Shown here piece after piece: positions 1 to 18,305 of a stretch of 32,144 nt of DNA. The notes beneath the pieces are model-generated. The model did not search any database and was not told where the DNA came from. It saw only the letters and a list, made by a program, of their open reading frames with translations. Each line of letters starts with the position of its first letter. The first letter of the stretch is position 1. Position numbers and translations under genes: made by a program. Where the stretch lies: NCBI GenBank assembly GCA_004376435.1, contig SOJS01000012.1, positions 1 through 32,144 of the forward strand, given 5' to 3'. Origin of the DNA: Dehalococcoidia bacterium. GTDB taxonomy: Bacteria > Chloroflexota > Dehalococcoidia > Dehalococcoidales > JAUVZE01.

Positions 1-1124
1 GATAGCTGCTTGTTTACCTCATCTTCACTCCAGAAGAAGGACTGCAGTCCCTGCACCCACTCAAAGTAGGATACCACCACCCCGCCAGTGTTAGCCAGCA
101 CATCAGGAACAACAAAGACCCCCTTATCGTAAAGAATATCGTCGGCTCTGGGGGTAGTTGGTCCGTTGGCGCCTTCAATAACCATCTTGGCTTTTACATC
201 GGCGGCATTTTCTTGAACTATCTGGTCCTCAAGGGCGGCCGGTAGTAATATGTCGCATGGTAGCGCTAACAGTTCGGCAGTGGTTACGGCATCAGCACCG
301 GCAAAGCCCTCTACCGAACCTGTCTTCTTTTTGTGATTTAGCACGCCATCTAAATCTAACCCCTTGGGGTTATAGATACCGGCTCGGGAATCGTTTATGG
401 CGATAATCTGGCAGCCCTCTCGGGTCAGCAGTTGAGCCGCCACCGCGCCGACATTACCACAGCCCTGAACCACTACTGTAGTTCCCTTGAGGTCCATGCC
501 CAGGTGCTTGGCTGCCAGTATGGTGCTGAGCATACAGCCACGGCCGGTAGCCTCAAAACGACCCTTGCTACCACCGATTTCAATAGGTTTGCCGGTAACC
601 ACCGGGGGAACAGCGTAGCCCTTTATCATACTGTAGGTATCCATAATCCAAGCCATGATTTGAGGGTTGGTGCCAACATCAGGAGCCGGGATATCCATTT
701 CTGGGCCTATTACGATTGAGATATCACTGGCATAACGCCGGGTTAGCCTTTCCAGCTCGCCCTGGGACATAACCTTTGGATTGCAGATGATGCCCCCCTT
801 GGCGCCACCATAAGGTATGTTAGCCACCGCCGCCTTCAATGTCATCCAGGCGGCTAATGCCCTGGTCTCATCCAGGGTGACACCGGGATGATAACGGATA
901 CCGCCCTTGGCCGGTCCTCGGGTATCGTTATGCATAACCCTGAAACCGGTAAAAACCTTTACTGTCCCGTCGTCCATTTTTACTGGAAAGTTGACGCTAA
1001 GCTCGCGCTCACACCTCAGCAGGCGCTGGCGATACCCATCCTCAACATGCAGATGGTCGCAGGCAGCATTAATCTGCTCCTGTACCACCTCAAAGGGGTT
1101 GATTTCTCCGTGGTTTGAACTCAT
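1..1124 (-). CDS. gdhA: Glutamate dehydrogenase (Glu/Leu/Phe/Val dehydrogenase family); N-terminal ~374 codons, C-terminus lies beyond the left edge
   Basis: Absent from the ORF track because it runs off the window. Minus-strand ATG (complement of 1122-1124) has AGGAGG 9 nt upstream. Translation reads MSSNHGEINPFEVV...GFRVMHNDTRGPAKGGIRYHPGV...NIPYGGAKGGI...TTVVVQGCGNVGAVAA...VIEGANGPTTP...GVVVSYFEWVQ. These are the catalytic-Lys box and Rossmann GxGxxG typical of GDH. Confidence 0.9.
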   Translation of the reverse strand, partial: MSSNHGEINPFEVVQEQINAACDHLHVEDGYRQRLLRCERELSVNFPVKMDDGTVKVFTGFRVMHNDTRGPAKGGIRYHPGVTLDETRALAAWMTLKAAVANIPYGGAKGGIICNPKVMSQGELERLTRRYASDISIVIGPEMDIPAPDVGTNPQIMAWIMDTYSMIKGYAVPPVVTGKPIEIGGSKGRFEATGRGCMLSTILAAKHLGMDLKGTTVVVQGCGNVGAVAAQLLTREGCQIIAINDSRAGIYNPKGLDLDGVLNHKKKTGSVEGFAGADAVTTAELLALPCDILLPAALEDQIVQENAADVKAKMVIEGANGPTTPRADDILYDKGVFVVPDVLANTGGVVVSYFEWVQGLQSFFWSEDEVNKQL

Positions 1125-1205
1125 GATGAACTTCCTCCTAAAAATTTATTTGGGATAGCCCAAAGCAGCCGCTCTTTAGCAGTTACAGTTTGGGCGCAAG
1201 TTCAT

Positions 1206-1269
1206 TTTGCTTAATAAGCATCACTTATTTCATCACGAAAAAATCACGATTTCATCACAAGCAGTCAGG
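1206..1269 (-). promoter_or_regulatory. Copy A of a conserved promoter/operator element facing gdh; carries four ATCAC repeats
   Basis: 1206-1236 and 1259-1269 are the reverse complement of 2080-2121 (30/31 and 10/11 identical by eye). They are interrupted by a 22-nt (2 x 11) insertion at 1237-1258. ATCAC occurs at 1220, 1232, 1243 and 1254, with spacing 12/11/11 nt. Confidence 0.5.
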
Positions 1270-1277
1270 AGTTCACC

Positions 1278-1306
1278 TTGACATCCAGGGGGAAGTGAGA
1301 TACTAT
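1278..1306 (+). promoter_or_regulatory. Sigma-70-like promoter of the response-regulator gene
   Basis: TTGACA (1278-1283), 17-nt spacer, TACTAT (1301-1306), about 50 nt upstream of the TTG start at 1358. Confidence 0.5.
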
Positions 1307-1357
1307 GACCTATGCCGATGACAGGAGAGAGGCTCTTAAGCTAAAGTTGGGGGTAGT

Positions 1358-2050
1358 TTGAAGGTACTGATTATTGGCGAAGACCCAGCCACGATAGAGA
1401 CAATCTCATTAGCCTTTGAGTTCCGCTGGCCCAATGCCAAGTTAGTCTTCACCAACAAGGGAGTCGAAGGCGCCGAACTGGTGGAGAAGGAACCCTTTGA
1501 CATAGTTATCCTTGATACCGATATGCCCGAGACTGACGGCATGGCAGTATTGCAGGAGATTCGACTTTTCTCGGATGTGCCGATGATTATTCTCACCGGG
1601 AGTAGCGAACAAACCGCCATCATCAAAGGACTGGAGCTGGGGGCTGACGATTGCCTCACCAAGCCCTTCGAACCCATGGTACTGCTGGCTCGTGTCAAGA
1701 GCGTGCTAAGGCGGAGCCACATGCCAGAGTTGAAAGAAGATGAGGAGCCCCTGGTCTGCGACGGCTTAGTAATTGATTTTGCCAGCCGTGAGATTACGCA
1801 TAACGGCAAAGCAGCTAAGCTCACCCCAACAGAATGGAACCTGCTTCGCTGTCTGGTCCGAAACAAGGGTCGGCTGATTCCCTATCAGGTGCTGTGGGAG
1901 AAGGCTTGGGGTAGCGCCGAGCCTGATAATGTCCCCGCCATAAGAACATGTGTCTGGCGTCTCAGGGCTAAGCTGGGTGATATGGCATCATCACCCAGCA
2001 TTATAATGGGTGAACGCGGTGTGGGCTACCGCTTTGTCGGACTCGGATAA
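1358..2050 (+). CDS. OmpR/PhoB-family two-component response regulator (receiver + winged-helix DNA-binding domain); no kinase gene nearby
   Basis: TTG start. Receiver hallmarks are present: IIGEDP acidic pocket, phospho-acceptor Asp in VILDTDMPETDG, Thr in ILTG, Lys in TKPF. C-terminal Trans_reg_C-like segment reads LTPTEWNLLRCLVRNKGRLIPYQVL...RLRAKL...RGVGYRF. Confidence 0.9.
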   Translation: MKVLIIGEDPATIETISLAFEFRWPNAKLVFTNKGVEGAELVEKEPFDIVILDTDMPETDGMAVLQEIRLFSDVPMIILTGSSEQTAIIKGLELGADDCLTKPFEPMVLLARVKSVLRRSHMPELKEDEEPLVCDGLVIDFASREITHNGKAAKLTPTEWNLLRCLVRNKGRLIPYQVLWEKAWGSAEPDNVPAIRTCVWRLRAKLGDMASSPSIIMGERGVGYRFVGLG

Positions 2051-2079
2051 AAGCACTCCTTTTGCCTGATACCTCCAAG

Positions 2080-2121
2080 CCTGCCTGCTTGTGATGAAAT
2101 GAGTGATGCTTATTAAGCAAA
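2080..2121 (+). promoter_or_regulatory. Copy B of the same element, facing the ferredoxin-AOR operon; contains a candidate promoter
   Basis: The sequence cctgcctgcttgtgatgaaatgagtgatgcttattaagcaaa is the reverse complement of copy A without the 22-nt insertion. GTGAT occurs at 2091 and 2103. Possible -35 TTGTGA (2089-2094), 16-nt spacer, -10 TATTAA (2111-2116). The element ends 61 nt before the ATG at 2183. Confidence 0.5.
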
Positions 2122-2182
2122 CTTAAGAGAGCACCACCTCTAGAAAACACTTTTTAAGAAAAGAGACCAAGGAGGATAGGAA

Positions 2183-2587
2183 ATGGCTTTACTTAAGCTC
2201 AACGCAGATAAATGCACCGGCTGTGGCATCTGTCTCCTGGCCTGCTCAGCGGTTAAGGAAGGGGTCTTCAACCCTCAGCTTGCCAGTTTGCAGGTCCATT
2301 CCCGCTACGAGAAGGGTGGTCTCACAGTAGAGGGGAAGTTTTGTGACCTGTGCCTGGACTGCGTCGAGGCTTGCCCGACTGAAGCCATCACGGTAAAAGA
2401 TGGTGTCCTTAGTATTGACCAAGAGCTCTGCACTCAGTGCGGGCTGTGCGTTGAAGCCTGCCCCCACGGCATTATCCATCTCTCACCTTCAGATAAGCTA
2501 CTGCTATGTGACCAATGTGGTGGCTCCCCACAATGTATAATCTTCTGCCCCCACCAAGCAATCTATAAAGAGGAGGAGGCAAAATGA
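2183..2587 (+). CDS. Poly-ferredoxin with four [4Fe-4S]-type Cys motifs (AorA-like electron-transfer subunit)
   Basis: Motifs CTGCGICLLAC, CDLCLDCVEACP, CTQCGLCVEACP and CDQCGGSPQCIIFCP. GGAGG RBS. Its stop overlaps the AOR start (ATGA at 2584-2587), indicating translational coupling. Confidence 0.85.
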   Translation: MALLKLNADKCTGCGICLLACSAVKEGVFNPQLASLQVHSRYEKGGLTVEGKFCDLCLDCVEACPTEAITVKDGVLSIDQELCTQCGLCVEACPHGIIHLSPSDKLLLCDQCGGSPQCIIFCPHQAIYKEEEAK

Positions 2588-4341
2588 GTTACAGATGGAA
2601 GGTACTTCGTGTCAACCTTAGTAATGGAAGTGTGGACACAGAGCCTCTAAACAAGGAGTGGACGGAAAAATATTTTGGCGGGCGGGGTTTGGGTGCCAAA
2701 TACCTGTATGAGGAGCTTAAGGGGGGGGTTGAACCGCTATCGCCGGCTAACAAACTCATCCTGACAACGGGTCCTTTTACCGGAACAATTGTGCCCTGCT
2801 CAGGCAAGCTAGCCATTACTACCAAATCGCCAGCCACCGGCGGGCTGCTTGATTGCTCCATTGGCGGTCACTTTGCCTCACAGCTTAAATTTGCTGGCTA
2901 TGATGTTTTGATTATTGAAGGGCAGGCAAAAGGCCCGGTTTACCTGCTAATCGAAGATGATAAGGTGGAAATCCGTAAAGCCAACCATCTCTGGAGTAAG
3001 GGTATTTTTGAAACCGAGTCAAAACTAAATGAAGAACACGGCGTCAACGCCAGGATATTGAGTATTGGTCCCGCCGGAGAGAACCTGGTCCCCTTTGCCT
3101 GTATCGGCTCAGAATTATATCGTCAGGCAGGGCGCGGCGGTGTCGGCTCCGTCATGGGCAGCAAAAAGCTAAAAGCCATTGTCTGCTCCGGGAGTAAGAG
3201 CGTATCTGTGCCTGACATGCCGCGTCTTCTTAAGTTAATCAAAAAGGCGATAGCGGAGGATGTGCTCACCGATACCAATCTCTGGGCACATACTGAAGGC
3301 ACACCAGCAATTGTGGAAATGAGCAATTCCGCCGGTACCTTCCCCACCAGAAACTACCAGGATGGAGTCTTTGCCGGTGCCAAGAAGATTAACTCTGATA
3401 GCATCCAGAGGCAAAAGCCCAAGAAAAAAGCCTGCTTTGCCTGCGCCCTGGGTTGCGGCAATTACACTGCTATCAAAGGCAGTGCCGTGGAGGGTCCAGA
3501 ATACGAGACCCTGGCTGTGGCTGGGGCTAACTGCGGGGTGGATGACCTGGAGGCGATTATCAAGTTCAACGCCGAATGCGATGACCTGGGGCTGGATACA
3601 ATCTCCACCGGCAATGTGCTCGGCTTTGCCATGGAAATGACAGAAAGAGGAATAAAGGATTTTGGCATAAGATTTGGCGATATAAAGAATTACCTAAAAC
3701 TGCCCCAGCTGATTGTCCAGCGCCAGGGGGTTGGAGCGGAATTAAGCCAGGGGGTAAAGAAGCTAGCCAAGAAATACGGCACCGCTGATTTTGCCATGGA
3801 GGTGAAGGGGCTGGAACTGCCTGGCTACGACCCGCGCGGTTCGTGGGCAATGGGGCTGGCTTACGCCACCGCCAGCCGCGGCGGCTGCCACATGAGTGCC
3901 TGGCCTATTGCTGATGAGGCTTTTGGCGACATTGACCCCTTCACTATTGAAGGCAAGGCGAAGCTGGTGATAGACGGACAGCACTACAACGCCATCAAGT
4001 TTTCCCTTATTGTCTGCGATTTCTGGGCGCTTTCTCTAGAGACGATGAGCGAGCTACTATCCTGCGTCCTCGGACGTGAGATTCCGGTTGCTGAACTGGA
4101 AAAGGCCGCGGAACGTATCTGGAACACATTCCGGCTGTTCAATGTCAGAGAGGGTTTCAAGGCGGCTGACGATACCCTGCCGGCTCGCTTCTTTAATGAC
4201 CCCCTGAAGTCTGGAACCCCGGCCGGGCGGGTGCTACCGCGTGACCAGTTTGACTCTATGTTAAAGGAGTATTACCAGCTCCGTGGTTGGGACAGTAACG
4301 GGATGCCGACACAAAAGAAACTTAAGGAGCTGGCAGTATAA
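2584..4341 (+). CDS. aor: Aldehyde:ferredoxin oxidoreductase family enzyme (tungsto/molybdo-pterin, AOR/AorB-like)
   Basis: 585 aa. N-terminal GGRGLGAKYLY; GPEYETL; CxxCxxxC cluster motif (CFACALGC); pterin-binding-type DDLGLDTIS; GLELPGYDPRG; RGGCHMSAWP. These match AOR-family signatures as I remember them. Confidence 0.9.
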   Translation: MSYRWKVLRVNLSNGSVDTEPLNKEWTEKYFGGRGLGAKYLYEELKGGVEPLSPANKLILTTGPFTGTIVPCSGKLAITTKSPATGGLLDCSIGGHFASQLKFAGYDVLIIEGQAKGPVYLLIEDDKVEIRKANHLWSKGIFETESKLNEEHGVNARILSIGPAGENLVPFACIGSELYRQAGRGGVGSVMGSKKLKAIVCSGSKSVSVPDMPRLLKLIKKAIAEDVLTDTNLWAHTEGTPAIVEMSNSAGTFPTRNYQDGVFAGAKKINSDSIQRQKPKKKACFACALGCGNYTAIKGSAVEGPEYETLAVAGANCGVDDLEAIIKFNAECDDLGLDTISTGNVLGFAMEMTERGIKDFGIRFGDIKNYLKLPQLIVQRQGVGAELSQGVKKLAKKYGTADFAMEVKGLELPGYDPRGSWAMGLAYATASRGGCHMSAWPIADEAFGDIDPFTIEGKAKLVIDGQHYNAIKFSLIVCDFWALSLETMSELLSCVLGREIPVAELEKAAERIWNTFRLFNVREGFKAADDTLPARFFNDPLKSGTPAGRVLPRDQFDSMLKEYYQLRGWDSNGMPTQKKLKELAV

Positions 4342-4350
4342 GAGGTGTAA

Positions 4351-4602
4351 ATGGCAGTGGTTAAGGTTCGCCTGCATGGGTCATTACCCTCACACTATTC
4401 TAAAGAGGGTAAGGGCAGGGGGGAGGATATTGCGGTAAAGTTCCCGCAGGAAAAAATAAGGGTGAAGGAAATCTTTGCCAAGCTAAATATTCCTGAAGAG
4501 GCGGTGGCTTTTGTGGCTATAAACGGTGTCAAAGGAGCTAAAGACGCCTGGGCAAAAGAAGGAGATAAGGTAACCATTTTCCCCTTTGTCGCTGGTGGTT
4601 AG
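4351..4602 (+). CDS. Small ThiS/MoaD-like beta-grasp protein with C-terminal Gly-Gly
   Basis: 83 aa ending ...DKVTIFPFVAGG-stop. GAGGTG RBS 9 nt after the aor stop. Its size, C-terminal GG and position next to a pterin enzyme fit a sulfur-carrier protein. Confidence 0.65.
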   Translation: MAVVKVRLHGSLPSHYSKEGKGRGEDIAVKFPQEKIRVKEIFAKLNIPEEAVAFVAINGVKGAKDAWAKEGDKVTIFPFVAGG

Positions 4603-4628
4603 ACATAAGGTCAATCACTATTAGAGTG

Positions 4629-4656
4629 TTGACAAATCAAAATTATATTATATAAT
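4629..4656 (+). promoter_or_regulatory. Sigma-70-like promoter of the TRAP-aminotransferase operon
   Basis: TTGACA (4629-4634), 16-nt spacer, TATAAT (4651-4656). It is flanked by the 6-nt inverted repeat TAGAGT (4622-4627) / ACTCTA (4656-4661). This leaves a leader of about 115 nt before the GTG at 4778. Confidence 0.55.
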
Positions 4657-4777
4657 ACTCTAGACTTACTACTGTCCGGGTAAGACAGAAAGGATGTTTA
4701 AAAGAGGAGGTGGTGTCATGTAATGAAAAGTAAGGTGGTTCATAGATAGGCCCAAAAAACTGTAAAGGAGATGTTAA

Positions 4778-5920
4778 GTGAAAGGAAGAAGATTTTTAAC
4801 AGCAGTTGTTGGTATCAGCCTGATGCTGATGCTGGCAGTAGCGCTACCGCTACTGAGCGCCTGTCCAGCCCCAACAACGACTGAAGAGGTTGAACAGCTA
4901 CAAGCAGATTTAGCTGCAGCAAATGCGACGATAGCCGACCTTGAGGCTCAGCTAGCCGCAGTAGGGGTAGAGCCTGAAGTACTGGAGCTGAGAATGCAAC
5001 ACTCCTGGGGTGCTGCCGAAAACCACTTCTTTGAGCAGTATGCCGATATTGTCAGGGAGATGACTGGTGGGCAGATTGACATCGCTGTCTTCTCTGACGG
5101 TGAGCTGGTGAGCTGGGATGAGCTCTCAGATGCAGTAGCGGCGGGGACGGTTGACATAGGGCATACCCACCCTGACTATTATGAGATGGTGGTCCCCGAG
5201 GGTTACCTAGAATCAGCCCCCTATCTGTGGCAAACACTAGACGAGGAAATGGCTGTTATCTATGAATTTGGTGTTGGTGACTTATATGCCGAAGCCCTTG
5301 AGGAGGTCTATGGCTACCATGTGATTGGCTTCCAGCCAGATGACTACGGCGCCCTGATGTTCACCAAGGAAATTAACAGCATAGCTGACATGGAGGGCTG
5401 TGTCATCCAGCTTCTGGATCCTTATGCTTCTATCCTGGCTGAGCTGGCCGGTTCCTCAGCAACCTATCTTGGCCCCGAGGAAATCTACACCTCGCTGGCA
5501 CTGGGCGTTCTTGACGGGGTTGAGTATGGCGGCGCCAAGGCTATGGGAGACATGGGGTTCCATGAGGTAGCCAAGTACTTCGTGCTGCCGCGCCATCAGC
5601 AATCTTGGTTCCCGTTCTACTTCATCAATGCTGATACGTGGGATAGCCTGACTGCTGACCAGCAGGCAATTCTTGAGCAGGCTGTCTACGCTAACGGCAT
5701 CTACATGAGAGCCTTCTATGCCGAGGGAGAAGCAAGCTCTCTGGCGATGATGGTGGATGCTGGCGTTACAGTGTGTTACCTGCCTGATGAGGATGTGGAG
5801 GCTATCTTCCAGAAGACTCTTGAGTGGCTAGAGGAAGACTATGCTGCCATGTCCCCGAGGTGCGCTGAGATAACCGAAAGGGTCTTTGAGGCATTAAGGG
5901 TCTTCGGGCGCATAGACTAG
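4778..5920 (+). CDS. TRAP transporter solute-binding protein (DctP family), lipoprotein with an N-terminal tether module
   Basis: GTG start with AAGGAG RBS. Signal peptide and lipobox LLSAC. Linker PAPTTTEEVEQLQADLAAANATIADLEAQLAA. The DctP-like body follows (RMQHSWGAAENHFFEQYADIVREMTGGQIDIAVFSDGEL...AVAAGTVDIG), and dctQ and dctM lie immediately downstream. Confidence 0.85.
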   Translation: MKGRRFLTAVVGISLMLMLAVALPLLSACPAPTTTEEVEQLQADLAAANATIADLEAQLAAVGVEPEVLELRMQHSWGAAENHFFEQYADIVREMTGGQIDIAVFSDGELVSWDELSDAVAAGTVDIGHTHPDYYEMVVPEGYLESAPYLWQTLDEEMAVIYEFGVGDLYAEALEEVYGYHVIGFQPDDYGALMFTKEINSIADMEGCVIQLLDPYASILAELAGSSATYLGPEEIYTSLALGVLDGVEYGGAKAMGDMGFHEVAKYFVLPRHQQSWFPFYFINADTWDSLTADQQAILEQAVYANGIYMRAFYAEGEASSLAMMVDAGVTVCYLPDEDVEAIFQKTLEWLEEDYAAMSPRCAEITERVFEALRVFGRID

Positions 5921-5932
5921 TTAAATAATATA

Positions 5933-5962
5933 GTAGGGGGTGAGGAAACCCCCACCCCCTAC
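5933..5962 (+). promoter_or_regulatory. GC-rich intercistronic stem-loop after dctP
   Basis: GTAGGGGGTG (5933-5942) pairs perfectly with CACCCCCTAC (5953-5962) around a 10-nt loop. No T-run follows, so it is more likely an mRNA stabiliser or processing barrier than a full terminator. Confidence 0.5.
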
Positions 5963-6002
5963 CTACCCTCAACAGTTGAGGTTGTTTAGCTTGGCAATGC
6001 CT

Positions 6003-6033
6003 AGCTTAAGTATTATGGCTTAATACTTAAGCT
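6003..6033 (+). terminator. Perfect 13-bp AT-rich inverted repeat between dctP and dctQ (attenuating terminator or protein-binding palindrome)
   Basis: AGCTTAAGTATTA (6003-6015), loop tggct, TAATACTTAAGCT (6021-6033), followed by gtttctgtgcgggattttt. Confidence 0.35.
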
Positions 6034-6067
6034 GTTTCTGTGCGGGATTTTTCCAAATAATTATTAG

Positions 6068-6598
6068 GTGAAAAGCTGGATAATGAAATGGCTGAGGCTT
6101 ACTCTTCGGCGCATTGATAGCTTTAGTGACATTTTTGCCAAGTCTATCTGCTGGCTAATCTTGGTTCTTATGGCCTGCACGTTCTATGACGTGATAATGA
6201 GATACTTCTTCAACTCGCCAACTATCTGGGCTTACAGTCTGGTTGGGCAGCTTTTTGGTCCCCTCTGGTTACTGACCGGTGCCTATCTTCTCACCCATGA
6301 TGAGCATGTCCGCATGGATATCTTCTACCGGCGCTTTTCTCCCAGGAAGAAGGCTATTATAGACATAATCACCTATACACTTTTCTTATTCTATATCATC
6401 CTGATACTGAAATTCGGATGGAACTATTTCTGGCTGTCCTTTATCAGAGAGGAGCACTTACGGGCAATGTGGAAACCTCTTATATGGCCATTTAAGTTGG
6501 CAATACCAGTAGGAATGGCCCTCATCCTGATAGCTGGTATCGCTAAATATATCCGTGACTTCCACCTAGCTATCACCGGGAGAGCACTAGAAGAATGA
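6068..6598 (+). CDS. TRAP transporter small permease (DctQ family)
   Basis: 176 aa with about four hydrophobic spans. It sits between dctP and dctM, and its stop overlaps the dctM start (ATGA at 6595-6598). The start is uncertain: GTG 6068 or ATG 6083. Confidence 0.8.
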   Translation: MKSWIMKWLRLTLRRIDSFSDIFAKSICWLILVLMACTFYDVIMRYFFNSPTIWAYSLVGQLFGPLWLLTGAYLLTHDEHVRMDIFYRRFSPRKKAIIDIITYTLFLFYIILILKFGWNYFWLSFIREEHLRAMWKPLIWPFKLAIPVGMALILIAGIAKYIRDFHLAITGRALEE

Positions 6599-7911
6599 GT
6601 ATTGAGTTAATTACGCTAATCTTTTTTGGTTTCATGCTGCTGCTTCTGGCGACCGGGCTGCCGATAGTCTTCGCCCTGGGGGGGCTGAGTTTAGGGCTTG
6701 CCTTTTTCCTGTGGGGACCTGAGGCTTTAGGCATGTCGCTCTACGGCGCTGTCAGTATAGTGAAATACTCCCTGCTGGTATGCGTCCCCCTCTTTGTCTT
6801 TATGGGAATGATGATGTATCATTCCGGCATAGCCGACGACCTCTATAATGCCTTCCAGTACTGGCTAGCGCCCATACCCGGCTCCCTGGCATCAGCTACA
6901 GTAGGGGTTTGCACTATCTTTGCTGCTATAGTTAGTTCTGAGGCGACTGCTACCCTGACCATGGGGAGCATTGCCCTCCCCCTGATGCGCAAGCGGGGAT
7001 ATAGCAAGTATATAGCAACAGGGTGCATCCAAGCAGGGGCAGCTCTAGGATTCCTCATTCCACCCAGCGCCATTGCCATCCTCTATGCCGTCATTGCCAA
7101 GGAATCGGTGGGCATGCTCTTCGCCGGGGGACTTTTCCCGGGACTGCTGCTGGCTACCCTGTTTATTATCTATATAACTGTGAGATGCAAAATTCAGCCG
7201 CACTTAGCTCCTCCTATCCCGAAGGAGGAGAGACCTGATATGAGGGAAAAACTGAGGTCCCTCAGGGGTTTAGTCCTCCCTATGAGCATCATCATACTGG
7301 TTATGGGGTCAATTATTGGCGGACTAACCACCCCGGTAGAAGCTTCTGCAGTAGGTGCCTTGGCCAGCATCATAGCGGTTGCCATCAAGCGCCGGCTCAG
7401 CTTACGAGTTATTCAAGACTCACTCATGGCGAGCTTGAAGCTCACCGGCATAATGATGTGGATTTTCATGGGGGCACTGACCTTCGGCAAAATCTATGAT
7501 GGCTTGGGAGCCAAGGATATAGTAGAAGCAGTCATGACTGGCCTACCGCTGGGACGTTGGGGTATACTCATAATGATACAGCTCACCTTCTTCATCCTGG
7601 GGACGTGCTTGGATGATACTGCCATCCTGTTTATCACCATGCCTATCTATATCCCTATAATCAAGGAACTGGGCTTTGACCCAGTATGGTTCGGCGTCCT
7701 TTACCTGGTCAATATGCAGATGGCTTATTTAACCCCACCCTTCGGCTATTGCCTAATGCTGATGAGGGGGGTGGTTCCACCGGATATAACTATGGGAGAT
7801 ATCTACCGTTCAGTTATACCCTTCGTCTTACTTCAGGGGGTTGGTCTGGCTATCATTATGCTATTCCCCCAGGTAGTCCTCTGGCTTCCCCACCTCATAT
7901 TTGGGAGCTAA
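6595..7911 (+). CDS. TRAP transporter large permease (DctM family)
   Basis: 438 aa and highly hydrophobic, with multiple membrane spans. It is translationally coupled to dctQ, which is the typical DctM size and arrangement. Confidence 0.88.
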   Translation: MSIELITLIFFGFMLLLLATGLPIVFALGGLSLGLAFFLWGPEALGMSLYGAVSIVKYSLLVCVPLFVFMGMMMYHSGIADDLYNAFQYWLAPIPGSLASATVGVCTIFAAIVSSEATATLTMGSIALPLMRKRGYSKYIATGCIQAGAALGFLIPPSAIAILYAVIAKESVGMLFAGGLFPGLLLATLFIIYITVRCKIQPHLAPPIPKEERPDMREKLRSLRGLVLPMSIIILVMGSIIGGLTTPVEASAVGALASIIAVAIKRRLSLRVIQDSLMASLKLTGIMMWIFMGALTFGKIYDGLGAKDIVEAVMTGLPLGRWGILIMIQLTFFILGTCLDDTAILFITMPIYIPIIKELGFDPVWFGVLYLVNMQMAYLTPPFGYCLMLMRGVVPPDITMGDIYRSVIPFVLLQGVGLAIIMLFPQVVLWLPHLIFGS

Positions 7912-7954
7912 AGGAAGTAAATAAAATAAAGCATAAAGAAAGGAGAAACTAAAG

Positions 7955-9295
7955 ATGAGTTATGATGCAGCACTTAAGCAATCGCGAAAATATCTTGACT
8001 TTATCGCCAAGAAAGAGCTGACCAAAGAAGAGAAAGACTGGGTTGTCCGCGAATCCGTTGATGGCTTTCGTGATAATGTCAACCCCGGGTTTCTTGAGTA
8101 CCGCAAATCGGCTTCTACTGACTACACAGCCATAGAGTGGTCAGACTCGGGCAGCATCTTTACTGATGTCTACGGCAAAGAGTTCATTGACTGCCTCGGT
8201 GGCTATGGCATTTATAATGTCGGTCACCGCCACCCCAAGGTAATGAAGGCAGTCCGTGACCAGCTCAACCGCCAGGCACTGCACAGCCAGGAGCTACTGG
8301 ACCCGCTGCGCGCCATGCTGGCTAAGCTGGTGGCTACGGTGACCCCTGGTAATTTGCAGTACTGCTTCTTCACCAACAGCGGCACCGAATCTGTTGAATG
8401 TGCCCTGAAGGTAGCCAGGCTTCATACCGGGCGCACCACCACCCTGGCCGCCATCGGTGCCTTCCACGGCAAGTCCATGGGCTCCTTAAGTGCCACCTCC
8501 AAGGCGGTATTCAGGAAACCCTTCTTGCCGCTGGTCCACGGCTTCAGGCATGTTCCCTACGGTGATGCCGACTATATAGAAAAGACAATGGCTGCCTGCG
8601 AGTTCAGTGGTGAGCCGGTGGGAACGGTGCTCCTTGAGCCCATCATGGGTGAGGGTGGCGTTATCATCCCGCCCGACGACTATTTCCCCAAGGTAAGGAA
8701 GCTCTGTGACAAATACGGCGCCATGCTGATAGCTGACGAAGTCCAGACCGGCATGGGCAGAACCGGCAAGATGTTCTGTATGGAGCACTACGGTGTCGTC
8801 CCCGATATTTTGGCTCTGGGTAAGGCGTTTGGTGGCGGTGTTATGCCTATAGGTGTCTGTGTTGCCTCCGAGGAAGTCTTTGCCGAGATGACTCCTAACC
8901 CCTTCATCCACACCACCACCTTCGGCGGCAACCCGATAGCCTGTGCCGCTGCCATTGCCGCCATTAACGTCTGTCTTGAGGAGGACCTCCCCAGGCAGTC
9001 TGCCGAGAAGGGGGCCTACTTCCTGCCCAAGCTGAAAGACCTGATGGGCAGGTACAAGAACATCTGTAAAGTGGGGCGTGGTCGTGGCTTGATGATTGCC
9101 ATGGAATTCGTCGACGACGAGGCTGGTTACAAAGTAGCCACCCAGCTCTTTGATATGGGTGTCCTGGTGGCGGGTACACTGATCAATGCCAGGACAATCC
9201 GCATCGAGCCGCCGCTGACTATCTCCAAGGCGGAGCTGGACCAGGTCCTTAATAGGCTTGAGAAAGCCTTTGATAAGGTTTCCAAAAAGCTCTAG
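7955..9295 (+). CDS. patA: Class-III PLP aminotransferase, PatA/YgjG (putrescine:2-oxoglutarate aminotransferase)-like
   Basis: From memory it matches E. coli PatA along nearly its whole length: NPGFLEYRKS, FIDCLGGYGIYNVGHRHP, HSQELLDPLRAMLAK, DEVQTGMGRTGKMF, PLP-Lys in LGKAFGGGVMPIG, HTTTFGGNP, IRIEPPLT. It starts 43 nt after dctM with an AAAGGAG RBS and no intervening promoter or hairpin. Confidence 0.88.
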   Translation: MSYDAALKQSRKYLDFIAKKELTKEEKDWVVRESVDGFRDNVNPGFLEYRKSASTDYTAIEWSDSGSIFTDVYGKEFIDCLGGYGIYNVGHRHPKVMKAVRDQLNRQALHSQELLDPLRAMLAKLVATVTPGNLQYCFFTNSGTESVECALKVARLHTGRTTTLAAIGAFHGKSMGSLSATSKAVFRKPFLPLVHGFRHVPYGDADYIEKTMAACEFSGEPVGTVLLEPIMGEGGVIIPPDDYFPKVRKLCDKYGAMLIADEVQTGMGRTGKMFCMEHYGVVPDILALGKAFGGGVMPIGVCVASEEVFAEMTPNPFIHTTTFGGNPIACAAAIAAINVCLEEDLPRQSAEKGAYFLPKLKDLMGRYKNICKVGRGRGLMIAMEFVDDEAGYKVATQLFDMGVLVAGTLINARTIRIEPPLTISKAELDQVLNRLEKAFDKVSKKL

Positions 9296-9333
9296 CTAGC
9301 CTGGTCCTAAAGGGGATATAGCATAATTGCTAA

Positions 9334-9358
9334 ATCTTGTCGGTAATATTGACAAGAT
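9334..9358. promoter_or_regulatory. 8-bp inverted repeat overlapping a candidate -35 upstream of the saccharopine-DH-like gene
   Basis: ATCTTGTC (9334-9341), 9-nt spacer, GACAAGAT (9351-9358). TTGACA at 9349-9354 is followed after 17 nt by a weak -10, TAGGGT (9372-9377). It could be an operator or a weak patA terminator. Confidence 0.3.
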
Positions 9359-9476
9359 AGCGAAAGCGTGCTAGGGTGCTTTACTGATAAACATCAGGAG
9401 CTAATTTTAATAATTTTTGCTCATTATTGCTTTTATGGTGGCGTGCCCAAATAATATAATTAAAGGAGAGGATAGA

Positions 9477-10697
9477 GTGACGAAAGCATTAATAGTAGGA
9501 GCTGGAGCACAGGGGGTTGTAATCAACTGGGTGCTTACGCGGGCTGATGATGTCGGGGAGGTGATTCTCGGCGACATCAATATGAAGAGGATGGAGGAGA
9601 TTGTAGAGACAAGCAGGAGTGATAAGGTCAAGATAAGGAAGCTGGATGCCAGCAATAAAGACGACATTGCAAAGCTTATAAAAGAAACAGGCGTTGACCT
9701 GGTAGTAAACGCCACCCTGCCCAAGTTTAATGACCAGATAATGGAAGCCTGCTATGCAACTAGAACATCTTACCTTGACATGGCTTCTGATGGCGGCTTC
9801 CCGGGTGGGGACGAAAATATTCCCGTAAACGAGCTAAAGTACGCTAAGAAGTGGGAAGATGCTGGTCTTCAAGGGTTCATCCTGGCTGGTTCTGACGCCG
9901 GTACCGTAAATGTAATGGCGAGGGAAGGCGCCGAAGAACTAGATGAGGTAGATAGCATAAAGATAAAAGATTATGCTATCACTGAATCTGAAAAACCGAT
10001 AGTTTTATGGCAACCGCAGACTTATCTGGAAGACCTCGCCACGCCTGCTCCATACTGGGATAATAGCTATAAGTATGCGCCTCCCTTCAGCGGGGAAGAG
10101 GAATACGACTTTCCGCCTCCCATAAATGGCAAGGGAAAGGTATACTATCACAGCCATGAAGAGCCACTAACAATACCGAAGTTCCTCGGCAAACCGGTAA
10201 AGTATGTAGATTTCAAGATGGGCGAGCCTGCTTACCTGCTCTGGAAGTCCATTTATGATCTGGGGTTGATGAGCGAGGAGCTGATTGAGGTTAAAGGTGT
10301 AAAGGTAGCTCCGCGGGATGTTTTCTTCAAGTTGCTACCACCTACGCCTAGTGCCAAGGAATTACAGGAACTGCTAAAGAGTGGGGCGTTGATAAGCCGG
10401 ATGATGCTTACGGTGGATGTTTATGGTAAAAAAGCTGGCAAGAAAATGCGTTATCAGATGTGGACAGACGGCCCAGATGCTAAGACAGCCAACGAGAAGA
10501 TTCCCGGAGCCAGTGATGTATCCTTTGCTACCGCGGTGGCAGCATCTATATTCTCACTGATGCTGTTAAGGGGACAGGTAAAGCATACCGGGATATTCCC
10601 TCCCGAGGTCTTTGGCAAAGAAGAGAGGGAGACATACTTCAAGGGGATAGGTGGCTGGGGTATAAAAATACATAAGAAAGTAACAGAGTTATCATAA
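9477..10697 (+). CDS. Saccharopine dehydrogenase-family NAD(P) oxidoreductase (substrate unknown)
   Basis: The preferred start is GTG 9477 (AAAGGAGAGG RBS 6 nt upstream) rather than the track start 9417. N-terminal Rossmann KALIVGAGAQGVV...VILGDIN; DLVVNATLPKFN...YLDMA; an about 400-aa two-domain layout like the Sacchrp_dh / carboxy(nor)spermidine dehydrogenase / lysine 6-dehydrogenase families. Confidence 0.75.
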   Translation: MTKALIVGAGAQGVVINWVLTRADDVGEVILGDINMKRMEEIVETSRSDKVKIRKLDASNKDDIAKLIKETGVDLVVNATLPKFNDQIMEACYATRTSYLDMASDGGFPGGDENIPVNELKYAKKWEDAGLQGFILAGSDAGTVNVMAREGAEELDEVDSIKIKDYAITESEKPIVLWQPQTYLEDLATPAPYWDNSYKYAPPFSGEEEYDFPPPINGKGKVYYHSHEEPLTIPKFLGKPVKYVDFKMGEPAYLLWKSIYDLGLMSEELIEVKGVKVAPRDVFFKLLPPTPSAKELQELLKSGALISRMMLTVDVYGKKAGKKMRYQMWTDGPDAKTANEKIPGASDVSFATAVAASIFSLMLLRGQVKHTGIFPPEVFGKEERETYFKGIGGWGIKIHKKVTELS

Positions 10698-10703
10698 AAA
10701 TAA

Positions 10704-10732
10704 TTGACAGGTGGTGAGGCGTATGAGATAAT
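10704..10732 (+). promoter_or_regulatory. Sigma-70-like promoter of the ABC importer operon
   Basis: TTGACA (10704-10709), 17-nt spacer, GATAAT (10727-10732). AAGGAGGAAGG RBS precedes the ATG at 10774. Confidence 0.5.
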
Positions 10733-10773
10733 TTAACATAGAATAAAAATAAAATTCAAGGAGGAAGGACGAG

Positions 10774-12519
10774 ATGAGAACCAAGAAAGGTTTACTAAGT
10801 CTACTGGTGGTAGCACTGCTGGCGCTCTCTTTGGTAACAGCCTGTCCAGCCCCAACAACGACTGAAGAGGTTGAGCAGCTGAATGCGACGATAGCCGACC
10901 TTGAGGCTCAGTTAGCCGCCGCAAATGCGACGATAGTCGACCTTGAGGCTCAGTTAGCCGCCGCAATGGGAGAGCCGGCAGAGGAAATAGCATACGGTGG
11001 CAGACTGGATGTTGGCTTTACTGCCGGAGAGGGTCTGGAAACTCTGTTATGTGACTCAAACTGGCAGTATACTGAGATGGGATGTGTTTTTTGGCCCCTA
11101 GTATACGACCAATTATGGATTATGGGGCCGGCACCGGATTACGAGGTCCTGCCTATGTTAGCCACCAGCTGGGAAACAGAGGATGGCATAACCTGGACAT
11201 TCTATCTGCGTGAAGATGCTGTCTTCCATGATGGTGTGCCAGTCACAGCCGAGGACGTGGCTTTTACCATTGAGAACTTGCCTAACGCCGACCCGGCATG
11301 GGCTTTTACCGATATAATTACTGAACCGGGAAGTGTTAAAGTTATTGACGATTACACGGTAGAGTTTACGCTGGAGCAATCGATTGGCACTAGATGGCCG
11401 GCTGCTTATTGGGCACCAATACTCCCCAAGCACATCTGGGAGCCCTATACAGACGATATGCTGTCGTTTTCCAACGATGAAGCCATTGGCTCTGGCCCGT
11501 ATAAGCTAAAGGAATTCAAGGCAGCCCAATATGTATGGTTTGAAGCCAATGAAGACTACTGGGGAGGAAGGCCATACTTAGATGAGGTGGTGTTTAGGAC
11601 CTATGGCAGTGAAGACGCCCAGTACATGGCTTTAAAGAGTGGTGAGGCCGACATGATTGGGTATCTAGGTTGTTCGGCAGTGGCTGCGGAGGACTTCATA
11701 GGGCTCGAGGACATGGAGGTTATAGTTTCTCCAGGCATCGGGCTGCAGTGGCTATCGTTTAACCTGTACAAGGATACACCGCTTCAAGACCTGGAAGTAA
11801 GGAAAGCCATTATGTATGGCATAGATAGGGATAGAGTCATAGAAATGGCATTCCTCGGCTATGCCCAGACAGCGGACAGCTTCATATATCCAGAAGTGGC
11901 AGAGCATAATCCAAATTTGCCGCAGTATGCCTACGACGTTGACCTGGCTAATGAAATCCTGGACAATGCCGGCTACCTGGATAGTGATGGCGATGGCATG
12001 AGAGATGACCTTACCTTCGAACTGTTAGCACCCTCAGATTGGACTGACGAGTTAAAGGCAGCGACACTGATTAAGGAGCAGCTTGCCGAAATAGGGATAG
12101 ATATCTCTCTGACGGTGCTGGACCTTGATACCTACTATGAGTATATCTATACGCCGGAGGAAGAGGAATACGAAATTGCTATTGCTACAGAAGAGCCCGG
12201 TCCGCATGGTGAGTGGATGTGGGAATTCTGCCGCAGCTATGAAGCTGGAGGCGAGGGGTGGAATACAGCTTACTGGGCTAACCCTGACTTTGACGAAGCC
12301 CTGGATGCCATGCTCGCCGAGGTAGACGTAGAGCAACGAACGGCATACCTGTATGAGATGCAAATGCTGATGGCTGAGGATCTGCCTTACGGTGTGCTTT
12401 ACAGGCCAGACCTGATAAACCCGGTAAGGACCGATGAGTTTGAAGGCTATGTAGAGACGATGGGGGGAATTTCGACTTGGATTAACCCCTGGACTTACTT
12501 TGAGCTGCACCTGAAATAA
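10774..12519 (+). CDS. ABC transporter substrate-binding lipoprotein, family 5 (Dpp/Opp/Nik-type)
   Basis: Signal peptide and lipobox LVTAC, then the same PAPTTTEEVEQL...NATIADLEAQLAA tether as the TRAP SBP. A large (about 520 aa) SBP_bac_5-like body follows (ATSWETEDGITWTFYLREDAVFHDGVPVTAEDV, GSGPYKLKEF). Dpp-type permeases and ATPases lie downstream. Confidence 0.85.
   Translation: MRTKKGLLSLLVVALLALSLVTACPAPTTTEEVEQLNATIADLEAQLAAANATIVDLEAQLAAAMGEPAEEIAYGGRLDVGFTAGEGLETLLCDSNWQYTEMGCVFWPLVYDQLWIMGPAPDYEVLPMLATSWETEDGITWTFYLREDAVFHDGVPVTAEDVAFTIENLPNADPAWAFTDIITEPGSVKVIDDYTVEFTLEQSIGTRWPAAYWAPILPKHIWEPYTDDMLSFSNDEAIGSGPYKLKEFKAAQYVWFEANEDYWGGRPYLDEVVFRTYGSEDAQYMALKSGEADMIGYLGCSAVAAEDFIGLEDMEVIVSPGIGLQWLSFNLYKDTPLQDLEVRKAIMYGIDRDRVIEMAFLGYAQTADSFIYPEVAEHNPNLPQYAYDVDLANEILDNAGYLDSDGDGMRDDLTFELLAPSDWTDELKAATLIKEQLAEIGIDISLTVLDLDTYYEYIYTPEEEEYEIAIATEEPGPHGEWMWEFCRSYEAGGEGWNTAYWANPDFDEALDAMLAEVDVEQRTAYLYEMQMLMAEDLPYGVLYRPDLINPVRTDEFEGYVETMGGISTWINPWTYFELHLK
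10882..10965 (+). repeat. In-frame 42-nt tandem duplication (2 copies, 1 mismatch) inside the SBP tether
   Basis: aatgcgacgatagCcgaccttgaggctcagttagccgccgca (10882-10923) is repeated at 10924-10965 with C changed to T. Each copy encodes NATI(A/V)DLEAQLAAA, 14 aa or two heptads. Confidence 0.9.
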
Positions 12520-12555
12520 GCGTGGAGCGGGCAGGAAACCTGCATGAGATTTCCT

Positions 12556-12590
12556 GGCAAAGGGGGGCAAATGATACGCCCCCCTTTGCC
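12556..12590 (+). promoter_or_regulatory. GC-rich 13-bp stem-loop after the SBP gene
   Basis: GGCAAAGGGGGGC (12556-12568) pairs perfectly with GCCCCCCTTTGCC (12578-12590) around a 9-nt loop. No T-run follows. Confidence 0.5.
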
Positions 12591-12626
12591 TAGGTGAACA
12601 CTACCTACTACCTGAAGCTCCCCCAC

Positions 12627-12655
12627 TAGACAAGCTCTGGGACACAGCCTATACT
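12627..12655 (+). promoter_or_regulatory. Possible internal promoter for the permease/ATPase genes
   Basis: TAGACA (12627-12632), 17-nt spacer, TATACT (12650-12655), within the 214-nt SBP-permease gap. Confidence 0.3.
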
Positions 12656-12733
12656 ATAAGGCTGGTTGGCAAGATATAGTTCACTACCTAGCTTTGCCCC
12701 TATATTGGCAGCTAATAAGGGGGGTTATGTAGA

Positions 12734-13723: not shown

Positions 13724-13724
13724 G

Positions 13725-14603: not shown

Positions 14604-14610
14604 TTAAAAA

Positions 14611-15561: not shown

Positions 15562-15570
15562 GATGAATTT

Positions 15571-16575: not shown

Positions 16576-16853
16576 GGTGGTCGCCCAAAGCCCCTCTTCC
16601 TTCCTGAGACTAATCCTGAATTTTCGCTATCGCCAGAAGGAATAGGGACACGAAACGGCAAAAAGTGAAGGACACTTTTGGGCTGAGACCGACACTTTGG
16701 TGAGGGGTGATACCGTCCTGTTGCGGTGTTAAAGACAGCGGCCTATCCGACTTTGGTGTGTTGGACTTTAGTGTCGGTTTGGGTTCACTCTGTTGCAGGG
16801 TTATCTTGCATGACTGTGGGGAAAATGTTACTTTTATGTGTGGAGTCGTGGGT

Positions 16854-16930
16854 TGGCGACCCCGGGGGGATTCGAACCCCCGATCTCCACCGTGACAGGG
16901 TGGCATGTTTGTCCACTACACCACGGGGCC
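16854..16930 (-). tRNA. tRNA-Asp (anticodon GTC), CCA encoded
   Basis: The minus strand reads GGCCCCGTGGTGTAGTGGACAAACATGCCACCCTGTCACGGTGGAGATCGGGGGTTCGAATCCCCCCGGGGTCGCCA. It has a 7-bp acceptor stem (one G-U pair), anticodon stem CCACC/GGTGG with loop CTGTCAC, a T-arm GGGGG-TTCGAAT-CCCCC and discriminator G followed by CCA. Confidence 0.9.
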
Positions 16931-16956
16931 ATTTCAGTAAGATAAGCTCAAGTCAA

Positions 16957-16985
16957 AGTCTATCAAGAGTGGTATCCAGTGTCAA
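16957..16985 (-). promoter_or_regulatory. Candidate promoter of tRNA-Asp
   Basis: On the minus strand: TTGACA (16985-16980), 17-nt spacer, TAGACT (16962-16957). The -10 ends 26 nt before the mature 5' end. Confidence 0.4.
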
Positions 16986-16993
16986 GTTGAATA

Positions 16994-17022: not shown

Positions 17023-17046
17023 GAGCTATAAAATTTAGAGGCGCAA

Positions 17047-17382: not shown

Positions 17383-17408
17383 AGGGAAGTGTAAGGAGTA
17401 TTGAGGTA

Positions 17409-18272: not shown

Positions 18273-18305
18273 TTTCTTCAGTCTATTTAACTACAGGAAG
18301 TTAGA

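Follow-up and report, generated by a model that had tools for sequence, protein, structure and literature searches.

The 32,144-nt stretch of contig SOJS01000012.1 from a Dehalococcoidia bacterium, the whole of which is called the window hereafter, carries in its left part genes for glutamate dehydrogenase (GDH), an aldehyde:ferredoxin oxidoreductase (AOR) complex, a tripartite ATP-independent periplasmic (TRAP) transporter, a class-III aminotransferase (AT) and an oxidoreductase of the saccharopine dehydrogenase (Sacchrp_dh) family. This region is read here as a catabolic module for putrescine-type diamines, probably agmatine/putrescine, of a strict and uncultured anaerobe, in which AORs would replace the NAD-dependent dehydrogenases, and a probability of about 0.65 is given to this reading. 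A first-pass annotation of the same DNA had already placed the AOR in the aldehyde-dehydrogenase role of an amine route, and the conserved linkage of AT and AOR genes, the fusions between them and the lack of an aldehyde dehydrogenase gene (PF00171, Aldedh) nearby support this as the probable role. Family calls come from Pfam and NCBIfam profile searches of the open reading frames (ORFs) of the window; they passed every gene of the earlier list in position and in family, and they agree with its statement that a NAD-dependent aldehyde dehydrogenase is lacking, as no PF00171-type gene was found in the window and each sufficiently long ORF (at least 380 aa) fits another family.

The AT and the AOR complex, which carry the argument, are encoded as follows:

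7955-9295, plus strand: PatA/YgjG-like class-III aminotransferase (NF008570; similarity to PDB 4uox)
2183-2587, plus strand (fdx): AorA-like electron-transfer subunit of 134 aa (Fer4 families; four CxxCxxCxxxC-type motifs)
2584-4341, plus strand (aor): AOR-family catalytic subunit, AorB-like, 585 aa (AFOR_N, AFOR_C)
4351-4602, plus strand: MoaD/ThiS-like small protein, AorD-like, ending in Gly-Gly (Pfam ThiS)

Two unbiased scans with the AOR covered one genome per GTDB species and JGI metagenome contigs, and the window proteins were mapped by tblastn on the 159 loci obtained; L numbers below denote loci. The count of linkage took in those loci that have 4 kb or more of flanking sequence, divided into those whose AOR belongs to the clade of the window enzyme (at least 58% identity) and those with other AORs (less than 50%). 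A class-III AT lies within 8 kb of the AOR in 16 of 17 clade loci but in only 4 of 109 other loci, and three of these four carry KFSMEICDF, a motif related to that of the clade described below. The neighbourhood from which the first-pass annotation had argued is thus kept in relatives. Moreover, no PF00171 aldehyde dehydrogenase occurs in any of the Pfam-annotated related loci.

Gene fusions point in the same direction. In L168, one uninterrupted ORF of 581 aa (4980-6725) joins an AT to the ferredoxin subunit: its residues 1-444 match the window AT at 68% identity, a short Ser/Ala linker follows, and the rest matches the window four-cluster protein at 47%, an architecture also found in four further 90%-identity clusters. 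In L169, from a metagenome-assembled genome (MAG) of Desulfotignum, the partner is the AOR itself; in the called product of 1055 aa, the C-terminal 131 residues of a PatA-like AT (55% identity) run without a stop, over a linker of about 10 residues, into a complete AOR (43%). The two fusions (AT-fdx and AT-AOR) are independent and differ in both partner and lineage, which is strong evidence that AT and AOR complex work together, probably in physical contact. The 4-aminobutanal-type aminoaldehyde is reactive and otherwise cyclises to 1-pyrroline. A bolder joint claim, namely that the PatA-like AT docks onto AorA/AorB and channels the aminoaldehyde into a ferredoxin-reducing oxidation, and that the accompanying TRAP transporter is the first for cationic polyamines/agmatine, is put forward tentatively and is held at somewhat less than even odds.

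The cassette of PatA-like AT, four-cluster ferredoxin subunit, AOR and MoaD-like gene recurs in Chloroflexota, Bacillota and Desulfobacterales-type contigs. In one layout, an AT 63-78% identical to that of the window stands beside fdx-AOR-MoaD. This is the case in Dehalococcoidia (L001, L086 and L088-L090, in the order dctPQM-AT-agmatinase-fdx-AOR-MoaD), in Bacillota with a chemotaxis receptor and an APC permease (L002) or with a sigma-54 activator (L003 and L004, of the Symbiobacterium type), in Desulfurispora thermophila, likewise of the Bacillota, with an APC permease and a sigma-54 activator (L085), and also in L173 and L174 (Limnocylindrales). In another layout, two GabT-like ATs and a further AOR (AOR2) come after fdx-AOR-MoaD, as in L097, L098, L099, L105, L107 and L162 and, with only the first AT visible, on the short contig L095. 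In addition, gdh, an AT and AOR2 lie nearby in L005 (Desulfofundulus thermobenzoicus), and the closest syntenic relative, L087, has the order dctPQM, HemL-like AT, gdh, GabT-like AT, AOR2.

Reciprocal tests gave similar clusters. From the AT, three PatA-like homologues were chosen on long contigs (L172, L173 and L174), and two of the three sit in AT-fdx-AOR-MoaD-transporter-Sacchrp_dh clusters: L173 reads Sacchrp_dh, SpeE, sigma-54 activator, AT, fdx, AOR, MoaD, SSF permease, Sacchrp_dh, and L174 reads sigma-54 activator, AT, fdx, AOR, MoaD, SSF, Sacchrp_dh. From DctP, the substrate-binding protein (SBP) of the TRAP system, three informative neighbourhoods were obtained outside Dehalococcoidia, namely L165/L166 (TetR, AT, DctPQM, PAD_porph, GDH, CN_hydrolase, AOR, MoaD-like gene), L167/L169 of the Desulfotignum MAG (DctPQM, PAD_porph, CN_hydrolase and CoA-transferases, with a ferredoxin and the 1055-aa fusion on the opposite strand) and L168 (sigma-54 activator, AT-ferredoxin fusion, AOR, DctPQM, ThiS, Sacchrp_dh), which is the window gene set reordered. 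The module therefore occurs with three unrelated transporter families, TRAP, APC and SSF, the permeases of the latter two taking the place of TRAP in Bacillota and in L173/L174.

The AT itself scores 688 bits against NF008570 (cut-off 612), and shares 57% identity with E. coli PatA (4uox) over 434 aligned positions (547 bits), while the next solved transaminase family reaches only 275 bits. Its pyridoxal phosphate lysine is conserved, the K in LGKAFGGG aligning with LAKALGGG. It is predicted from these matches to be a diamine:2-oxoglutarate transaminase. The module had been described as one for amines or omega-amino acids; the amine part of this description stands and, for this AT, diamines are favoured over omega-amino acids because the enzyme is specifically PatA-like.

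Further clues to the substrate come from relatives. An agmatinase gene separates AT from fdx in L086 and L090 (TIGR01230, 204 against a cut-off of 174); PAD_porph (agmatine deiminase family) and CN_hydrolase (N-carbamoylputrescine amidase family) genes, the AguA/AguB family pair, surround the orthologous TRAP system of L165 together with GDH, AT and AOR genes, and they also follow the TRAP genes in L167; a spermidine synthase gene is present in two other lineages, in L003 and L173. The enzymes for making putrescine from agmatine are thus non-homologous from cluster to cluster, agmatinase in one lineage and AguA/AguB in another. Together with the PatA-like AT, the agmatinase, AguA/AguB or SpeE genes in related loci point to agmatine/putrescine as the substrate. 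Two TRAP-linked routes were considered and dropped, that of taurine (Tpa/Xsc) and that of ectoine (DoeABCD), since the AT is PatA-like, their defining genes are absent and DctP lacks the arginine for sulfonates or carboxylates.

The AOR of the window matches PF02730 (271 bits) and PF01314 (419 bits) over its full length, and its scores against solved AORs are 493 bits (PDB 9mqx), 466 (1aor) and 435 (8c0z). A look-up of its exact sequence gave no entry, although the homology database contains the protein (P0001). In an alignment with these three, it keeps CFACALGC, the distal Cys in LIVCDF, EGPEYE and RGGCH, so that it retains the Cys ligands of the [4Fe-4S] cluster (CxxCxxxC and the distal Cys) as well as the catalytic Glu and His; tungsten use and aldehyde oxidation are predictions. 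The AOR family has two pterin-binding motifs of the type DxxGL(C/D). The first is present as DDLGLD, whereas the second, DSxGxC in 1aor, 9mqx and 8c0z, is KFSLIVC in the window enzyme. This segment belongs to a clade motif, KFSxxLCDFW, at residues 472-481 (window 3997-4026); practically all of the 120 closest homologues, and the AORs of every clade locus, have K-F-S-x-I-L-C-D-F-W there, the AOR fused to an AT in L169 carries KFSMGLCDFW, and the variant KFSMEICDF occurs in L006, L110 and L111, each with an AT nearby. That the Asp following the cluster-ligating Cys contacts the amino group of the substrate is pure speculation.

The small protein encoded ahead of aor had been called a ferredoxin, but it is better regarded as an AorA-type enzyme subunit than as a free ferredoxin. 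It is likened to AorA because it has 16 Cys in four cluster motifs, predicting 4x[4Fe-4S], and because the stop of its gene overlaps the start of aor (2584). The MoaD/ThiS-like protein is by analogy a putative sulfur carrier for cofactor maturation, and its gene is kept after that of AOR in most related loci. An AorC-like FAD/NAD subunit gene was found neither in the window nor in the Pfam-annotated orthologous loci, and the acceptor would therefore not be NAD through AorC.

The transporter genes lie between the AOR complex and the AT:

4778-5920, plus strand: DctP, TRAP substrate-binding lipoprotein with lipobox LLSAC (Pfam DctP, PF03480, 142 bits)
6068-6598, plus strand: DctQ, TRAP membrane subunit (Pfam DctQ)
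6595-7911, plus strand: DctM, TRAP membrane subunit (Pfam DctM; TIGR00786, 302 bits against a cut-off of 268)

The homologues of DctP form a small, sharply bounded clade (88 matches at 43-81% identity, after which identity falls to 30%), in which numerous acidic and aromatic residues are invariant. In SiaP, Arg147 acts as the selectivity filter for carboxylates, and 96.8% of DctP-type SBPs have this arginine; in ligand-bound TRAP SBP structures, the acid group always pairs with the conserved arginine, and the one solved SBP without its equivalent binds ethanolamine (PMC4646407). With a SiaP reference sequence 100% identical to PDB 2cex, the R147 column of 82 clade members holds Asn in 71, Gln in five, Leu in three and Met, Ser and Thr in one each, and Arg occurs there only in two distant outliers (P0207 and P0208). 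The R127 column of the clade is Gly; in the window DctP the equivalents of R147 and R127 are Q211 and G191. Because the clade lacks the carboxylate-binding arginine, DctP would suit a cationic ligand, and a cationic amine, agmatine or putrescine, is the most economical reading of its sequence. The ethanolamine-binding protein, Csal_0678 (PDB 4uab; PMC4646407), likewise lacks the equivalent of R147 but is a weak match to DctP (61 bits) and belongs to another clade, whereas the window clade has Asn/Gln at this column and co-occurs with agmatine/putrescine genes.

It has also to be considered, for the transporter only, that its cargo is a carboxylate, for instance GABA (4-aminobutyrate) or 4-guanidinobutyrate, which DctP would hold through a metal ion or a water network. 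The AlphaFold model of DctP (pLDDT 92.7) has the TRAP SBP fold, with target-normalised TM-scores of 0.87 to 2zzv and 0.78-0.85 to the SiaP chains of 2cex, the query-normalised values being about 0.65-0.76. Its structural matches, all of them acid binders and at most 25% identical, give no hint of the ligand; the best of them (2zzv, 2hzk and 7ug8) bind lactate or alpha-keto acids in a Ca/Na-dependent manner, and the invariant acidic residues of the clade could bind a metal, so that DctP could hold a carboxylate through a bridging metal ion. Furthermore, the agmatinase family includes guanidino-acid hydrolases. On the other side stand the pairing of acid with Arg in the ligand-bound TRAP SBPs and the ethanolamine ligand of the sole solved Arg-less one (PMC4646407), the PAD_porph and CN_hydrolase pair in L165 and L167, which fits agmatine and not guanidinobutyrate, and the AT next to the TRAP genes, which is PatA-like and not GabT-like. 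Carboxylate import is on balance unlikely, though far from negligible, and the cationic amine is preferred.

Two further enzymes of the module are encoded at its ends:

1-1124, minus strand: glutamate dehydrogenase gene (gdh), with the N-terminal 374 aa in the window, running off its left end (ELFV_dehydrog, ELFV_dehydrog_N)
9477-10697, plus strand: Sacchrp_dh-family oxidoreductase (Sacchrp_dh_NADP 70 bits, Sacchrp_dh_C 53 bits)

The gdh product matches PF02812 and PF00208, and its GdhA_Arch score of 502 bits is under the cut-off of 750 because the protein is truncated at the window edge. GDH genes recur inside the related clusters L087, L005, L165 and L171. Contig L171 is 97.7% identical over window 1-5844 and continues to the left; there, the minus-strand unit led by gdh goes on with a GabT-like AT (TIGR00700, 536 against a cut-off of 507), an AOR2 of 579 aa and an AMP-forming acyl-CoA ligase. 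The layout with two GabT-like ATs has orthologues of this AOR2 (69-71% identity) as its second AOR, and such orthologues and GabT-like ATs follow fdx-AOR-MoaD in L097, L099, L105, L107 and L162.

The Sacchrp_dh-family product, for whose gene the GTG at 9477 with its Shine-Dalgarno sequence was confirmed as the better start, scores only 131 bits against NF043000 (cut-off 800) and 83 bits against its best solved relative, PDB 8deb. It shares its Pfam domains with carboxy(nor)spermidine dehydrogenase and saccharopine dehydrogenase, and by these scores it is a distant relative of carboxy(nor)spermidine dehydrogenase and not that enzyme; the reaction of carboxyspermidine dehydrogenase links a secondary amine reversibly to a primary amine and a semialdehyde. 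Family members stand at the same position in L168, L173 and L174, and the family recurs in the clusters L168, L173, L174, L081, L097 and L107. No orthologue of the window gene was found in the closest loci L087, L086, L090 and L001, and therefore only a recurrence at the level of the family is supported. As a side observation, two or three Sacchrp_dh paralogues and a DoeA-like gene (ectoine hydrolase/M24) lie upstream of fdx-AOR-MoaD-GabT-GabT-AOR2 in L097 (1400-9400) and L107 (800-9400).

From these parts, the following pathway is proposed. The amine would be taken up by the lipid-anchored TRAP system whose DctP lost the carboxylate-binding Arg, and the PatA-like AT would move its terminal amino group to 2-oxoglutarate, giving 4-aminobutanal and glutamate. 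The complex of AOR and the AorA-like subunit would then oxidise 4-aminobutanal to GABA with electrons passing to a low-potential acceptor, and GDH would remake 2-oxoglutarate and free ammonium. Beyond the left edge, as judged from L171, the GabT-like AT and AOR2 would convert GABA via succinate semialdehyde to succinate, with the acyl-CoA ligase coming next. The Sacchrp_dh enzyme would probably cleave a secondary amine, for example a polyamine, oxidatively and so feed the aldehyde/amine pool. Two AT/AOR pairs and GDH, encoded in units which bear a common operator (below), would therefore be enough for the conversion of putrescine via GABA to succinate with recycling of 2-oxoglutarate.

The same enzymes might run in reverse: with reduced ferredoxin as donor, the AOR would turn a carboxylic acid into the aldehyde, which the AT would aminate, so that an amine is made. 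Transaminations are reversible and, according to PMC6365974, AORs can reduce acids under strongly reducing conditions; nevertheless, the reduction of acids by AORs is very slow and disfavoured thermodynamically, and the clusters contain uptake systems (TRAP, APC, SSF), putrescine-releasing hydrolases (agmatinase, AguAB) and a catabolic GDH, which makes amine synthesis very improbable indeed compared with the catabolic direction.

Several points weigh against the diamine module, and some of them bear on whether AT and AOR are coupled at all. The Fisher test of the AT/AOR linkage gives p ~1e-15, but this significance is overstated because the loci are not phylogenetically independent. A layout of clade AORs without an AT nearby exists in L081/L082, L083 and L100, and L172 has an AT with an arginase-family gene and an amidohydrolase but no AOR. 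The canonical DSxGxC is lost in the clade, and cofactor binding may differ from that of the characterised AORs. A NAD-dependent aldehyde dehydrogenase may be encoded elsewhere in the genome. The AOR could then be a broad detoxifier of aldehydes which happens to lie near amine genes, the aminoaldehyde being oxidised by a NAD(P)-dependent dehydrogenase outside the window; characterised AORs are promiscuous, and that of Aromatoleum backs up an aldehyde dehydrogenase (PMC6365974). This explanation is nevertheless quite improbable in view of the linkage of 16/17 against 4/109, the AT/AOR adjacency kept across three phyla despite rearranged gene orders, the two independent fusions and the lack of PF00171 genes in the Pfam-annotated related loci.

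Other adverse points concern the identity of the amine. The AT score of 587 bits against TIGR03372 is under the stricter cut-off of 659; agmatinase and AguAB genes were found not in the window but in relatives, on which the agmatine link depends; the Sacchrp_dh copies of related loci are mutually only 22-51% identical; and the DctP matches to acid binders and its possible metal bridge, described above, belong here as well. L087 has at 15326-16654, in the position of the PatA-like AT, an AT of the HemL-like (glutamate-1-semialdehyde aminomutase) subfamily, so the AOR clade is not tied to one amine. In L081/L082 (1-12500), a clade AOR of 72% identity and its fdx stand among two Sacchrp_dh genes, DAP_DH_C, electron-transfer flavoprotein (ETF) alpha/beta, an ADP-forming acyl-CoA synthetase, an HpaB/AbfD-like gene and a short-chain dehydrogenase/reductase, with no aminotransferase, and the locus resembles by analogy a lysine, ornithine or 4-hydroxybutyrate-type fermentation cluster. 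The same AT-to-AOR coupling may thus serve another primary amine, for example cadaverine, 1,3-diaminopropane or an aminoaldehyde derived from spermidine, or else an omega-amino acid (5-aminovalerate, beta-alanine); the agmatine genes of relatives would then be lineage-specific feeder routes. E. coli PatA accepts several diamines, and besides the HemL-like AT of L087 there is an extra omega-AT in the same context in L086. Against such an amine, three polyamine enzyme sets (agmatinase, AguA plus AguB, and SpeE) recur around orthologous AT, AOR or TRAP genes, the AT is by far nearest to PatA (547 against 275 bits), and an omega-amino-acid ligand would normally need the Arg which DctP has lost. 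A substrate outside agmatine/putrescine is consequently regarded as a minority possibility that deserves attention, and agmatine/putrescine is retained as the probable substrate of the module.

The control region of the module contains the following features:

1201-1269, minus strand: operator copy 1, upstream of gdh, containing GTGATGAAATAAGTGATG on the minus strand (inverted repeats and motif)
2080-2126, plus strand: operator copy 2, upstream of fdx-aor, containing GTGATGAAATGAGTGATG (inverted repeats and motif)
1358-2050, plus strand: OmpR-family response regulator gene, between the two operator copies (Pfam Response_reg, Trans_reg_C)
4629-4656, plus strand: sigma-70-like consensus promoter TTGACA-16-TATAAT, 12/12, ahead of dctP (pattern match only)
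5932-5963, no strand: GC-rich hairpin with a 14-bp stem just 3' of dctP (pattern match only)

The operator which the first-pass annotation had described as common to the gdh and aor units proved real in a repeat search. A 36-nt inverted repeat (1201-1236/2091-2126) is 92% complementary and a 21-nt repeat (1249-1269/2080-2100) 95%, both being oriented alike with respect to gdh and fdx-aor, and GTGATGN6GTGATG occurs in exactly two copies in the window against a chance expectation of 0.2 at the one-mismatch tolerance of the search. Its scope is narrower than the module: gdh and fdx-aor have it, whereas dctPQM-AT, with a putative promoter of its own, and the Sacchrp_dh gene have no copy, since the looser matches in the rest of the window lie within genes and are noise-like. 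The consensus promoter at 4629-4656 implies that dctPQM-AT is a separate transcription unit. Among the loci fetched, the operator sequence was found only in L171, where both intergenic regions are 99% identical and copy 2 is identical; this relative is too close to be informative for footprinting.

The earlier account overlooked the response regulator gene between gdh and fdx. Its product is a candidate controller, and gdh(-gabT-aor2) and fdx-aor-moaD would probably stand under its control through the one operator; no histidine kinase gene was found in the window. The hairpin at 5932-5963 could be an intra-operon attenuator or stabiliser. A second one between dctP and dctQ, at 6002-6034, has a 14-bp AT-rich stem followed by a T-run, and the two would fit a differential expression of the binding protein and the membrane subunits. 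A scan of positions 1-19000 against Rfam at E<=0.1 gave only a tRNA, and hence no leader RNA or riboswitch that points to a ligand.

To the right of the module, two more features were recorded:

10774-16575, plus strand: Opp/Dpp-type ATP-binding cassette (ABC) transporter, with SBP_bac_5, two permeases and two ATPases (family search)
16857-16930, minus strand: tRNA gene between the ABC transporter and rpsF (Rfam, 63 bits)

The earlier account stopped at the Sacchrp_dh gene and omitted this ABC transporter, which has a promoter-like site of its own at 10704-10732 (pattern match) and whose membership in the amine module is uncertain. An Opp-type ABC system abuts fdx-AOR in L083 and L100, where an amidohydrolase gene is also present; because such a system precedes fdx-AOR-ThiS there, that of the window may not be a chance neighbour. 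In L083 (2800-13500) and L100, the ABC genes come directly before fdx-AOR-ThiS, and the amidohydrolase and a 3-hydroxyacyl-CoA dehydrogenase come after it. The family-less ORF at 16726-17031 is probably not a gene, as the tRNA overlaps it on the opposite strand.

The remaining window is housekeeping (rpsF-ssb-rpsR, rnpA, yidC, jag, ileS and the trp operon). Genes rpsF and rpsR adjoin the amine module both here (17047-18184) and in the Desulfobacterales-type L165 (3041-3985), probably by coincidence. Although rnpA-yidC-jag is present, dnaA is not in the window. The cumulative GC skew peaks near 25 kb (about 24800-25000), where gene orientation turns from plus to minus, ileS ending at 24848 and an htrA-like gene being convergent to it. 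A second, longer PALP-family gene (TrpB-like, 457 aa) at 26041-27414 on the minus strand adjoins the trpA/trpB operon and may be a TrpB2-type paralogue.

Much of the proposed module has known counterparts. Its reaction order, two transaminations and two aldehyde oxidations, is that of PatA/YgjG, PatD/YdcW, GabT or PuuE and GabD or Sad in E. coli. There, both oxidations are made by PF00171 NAD(P)-dependent enzymes, while here they are assigned to AOR with its Fe-S subunit; in addition, GDH is built into the cluster, and uptake would be by TRAP instead of PuuP/PlaP or PotFGHI. SpeB and AguA plus AguB, the two routes from agmatine to putrescine, are represented by their families inside related AT/AOR/TRAP clusters and are absent from the window. 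The hardware resembles AorABC(DE) of Aromatoleum aromaticum (PDB 8c0z; PMC10413684), for which PMC6365974 describes a four-cluster AorA and the MoaD-like maturation genes aorD/aorE in the operon. The gene order is shared (small four-cluster subunit, tungsten-cofactor subunit with AorB at 435 bits, MoaD-like maturation gene). The window differs in having no AorC (FAD/NAD), in the KFSxxLCDFW of its clade against DSxGxC, and in that AORs of its type are dedicated to an AT partner and sometimes fused to it, unlike the Aromatoleum enzyme. The logic echoes peptide fermentation by Pyrococcus furiosus, whose AOR (1aor, 466 bits) likewise makes a ferredoxin-linked oxidation of amino-acid-derived aldehydes together with transaminases and GDH; its aldehydes, however, come from decarboxylation of 2-keto acids and it is a homodimer without an Fe-S subunit, whereas here the aldehyde would be the direct product of an omega-transaminase.

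The combination had been thought not to be known as a characterised unit, and no published description of it was found in the open-access full-text literature. This search gave no paper on AOR together with putrescine aminotransferase, aminobutanal, agmatine or GABA transaminase/succinate semialdehyde, nothing relevant on TRAP with agmatine, and no description of agmatine routes as feeders of an AOR-based pathway. While the chemistry (PatA/PatD/GabT/GabD of E. coli), the hardware (Aromatoleum AorAB(D) minus AorC) and the logic are already known, the dedicated omega-transaminase/AOR pairing, its single-protein fusions, the AOR clade defined by KFSxxLCDFW and the Arg-less TRAP SBP clade linked to agmatine genes are not described in the literature searched.

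Decaying biomass yields polyamines and agmatine in abundance, but to our knowledge their use by uncultured anaerobes such as sediment Dehalococcoidia is poorly known. If the proposed pathway is true, reduced ferredoxin would replace NADH at two steps; since ferredoxin is able to power H2 formation or ion pumping, amine fermentation would then differ in its energy yield, and polyamine turnover would depend on tungsten. If docking and channelling are also true, strict anaerobes would conserve low-potential electrons from polyamines by means of a transaminase-tungstoenzyme unit. As far as we know, most members of the AOR family have no assigned substrate; the AT-AOR and AT-ferredoxin fusions would provide one large AOR clade with a role in physiology, and these natural fusions are ready-made constructs for studying substrate channelling. 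Finally, if the TRAP system imports cationic polyamines or agmatine, the carboxylate rule of the TRAP family would be broken, and the Arg-less clade linked to agmatine genes is a direct test case for the carriage of cations by TRAP transporters.

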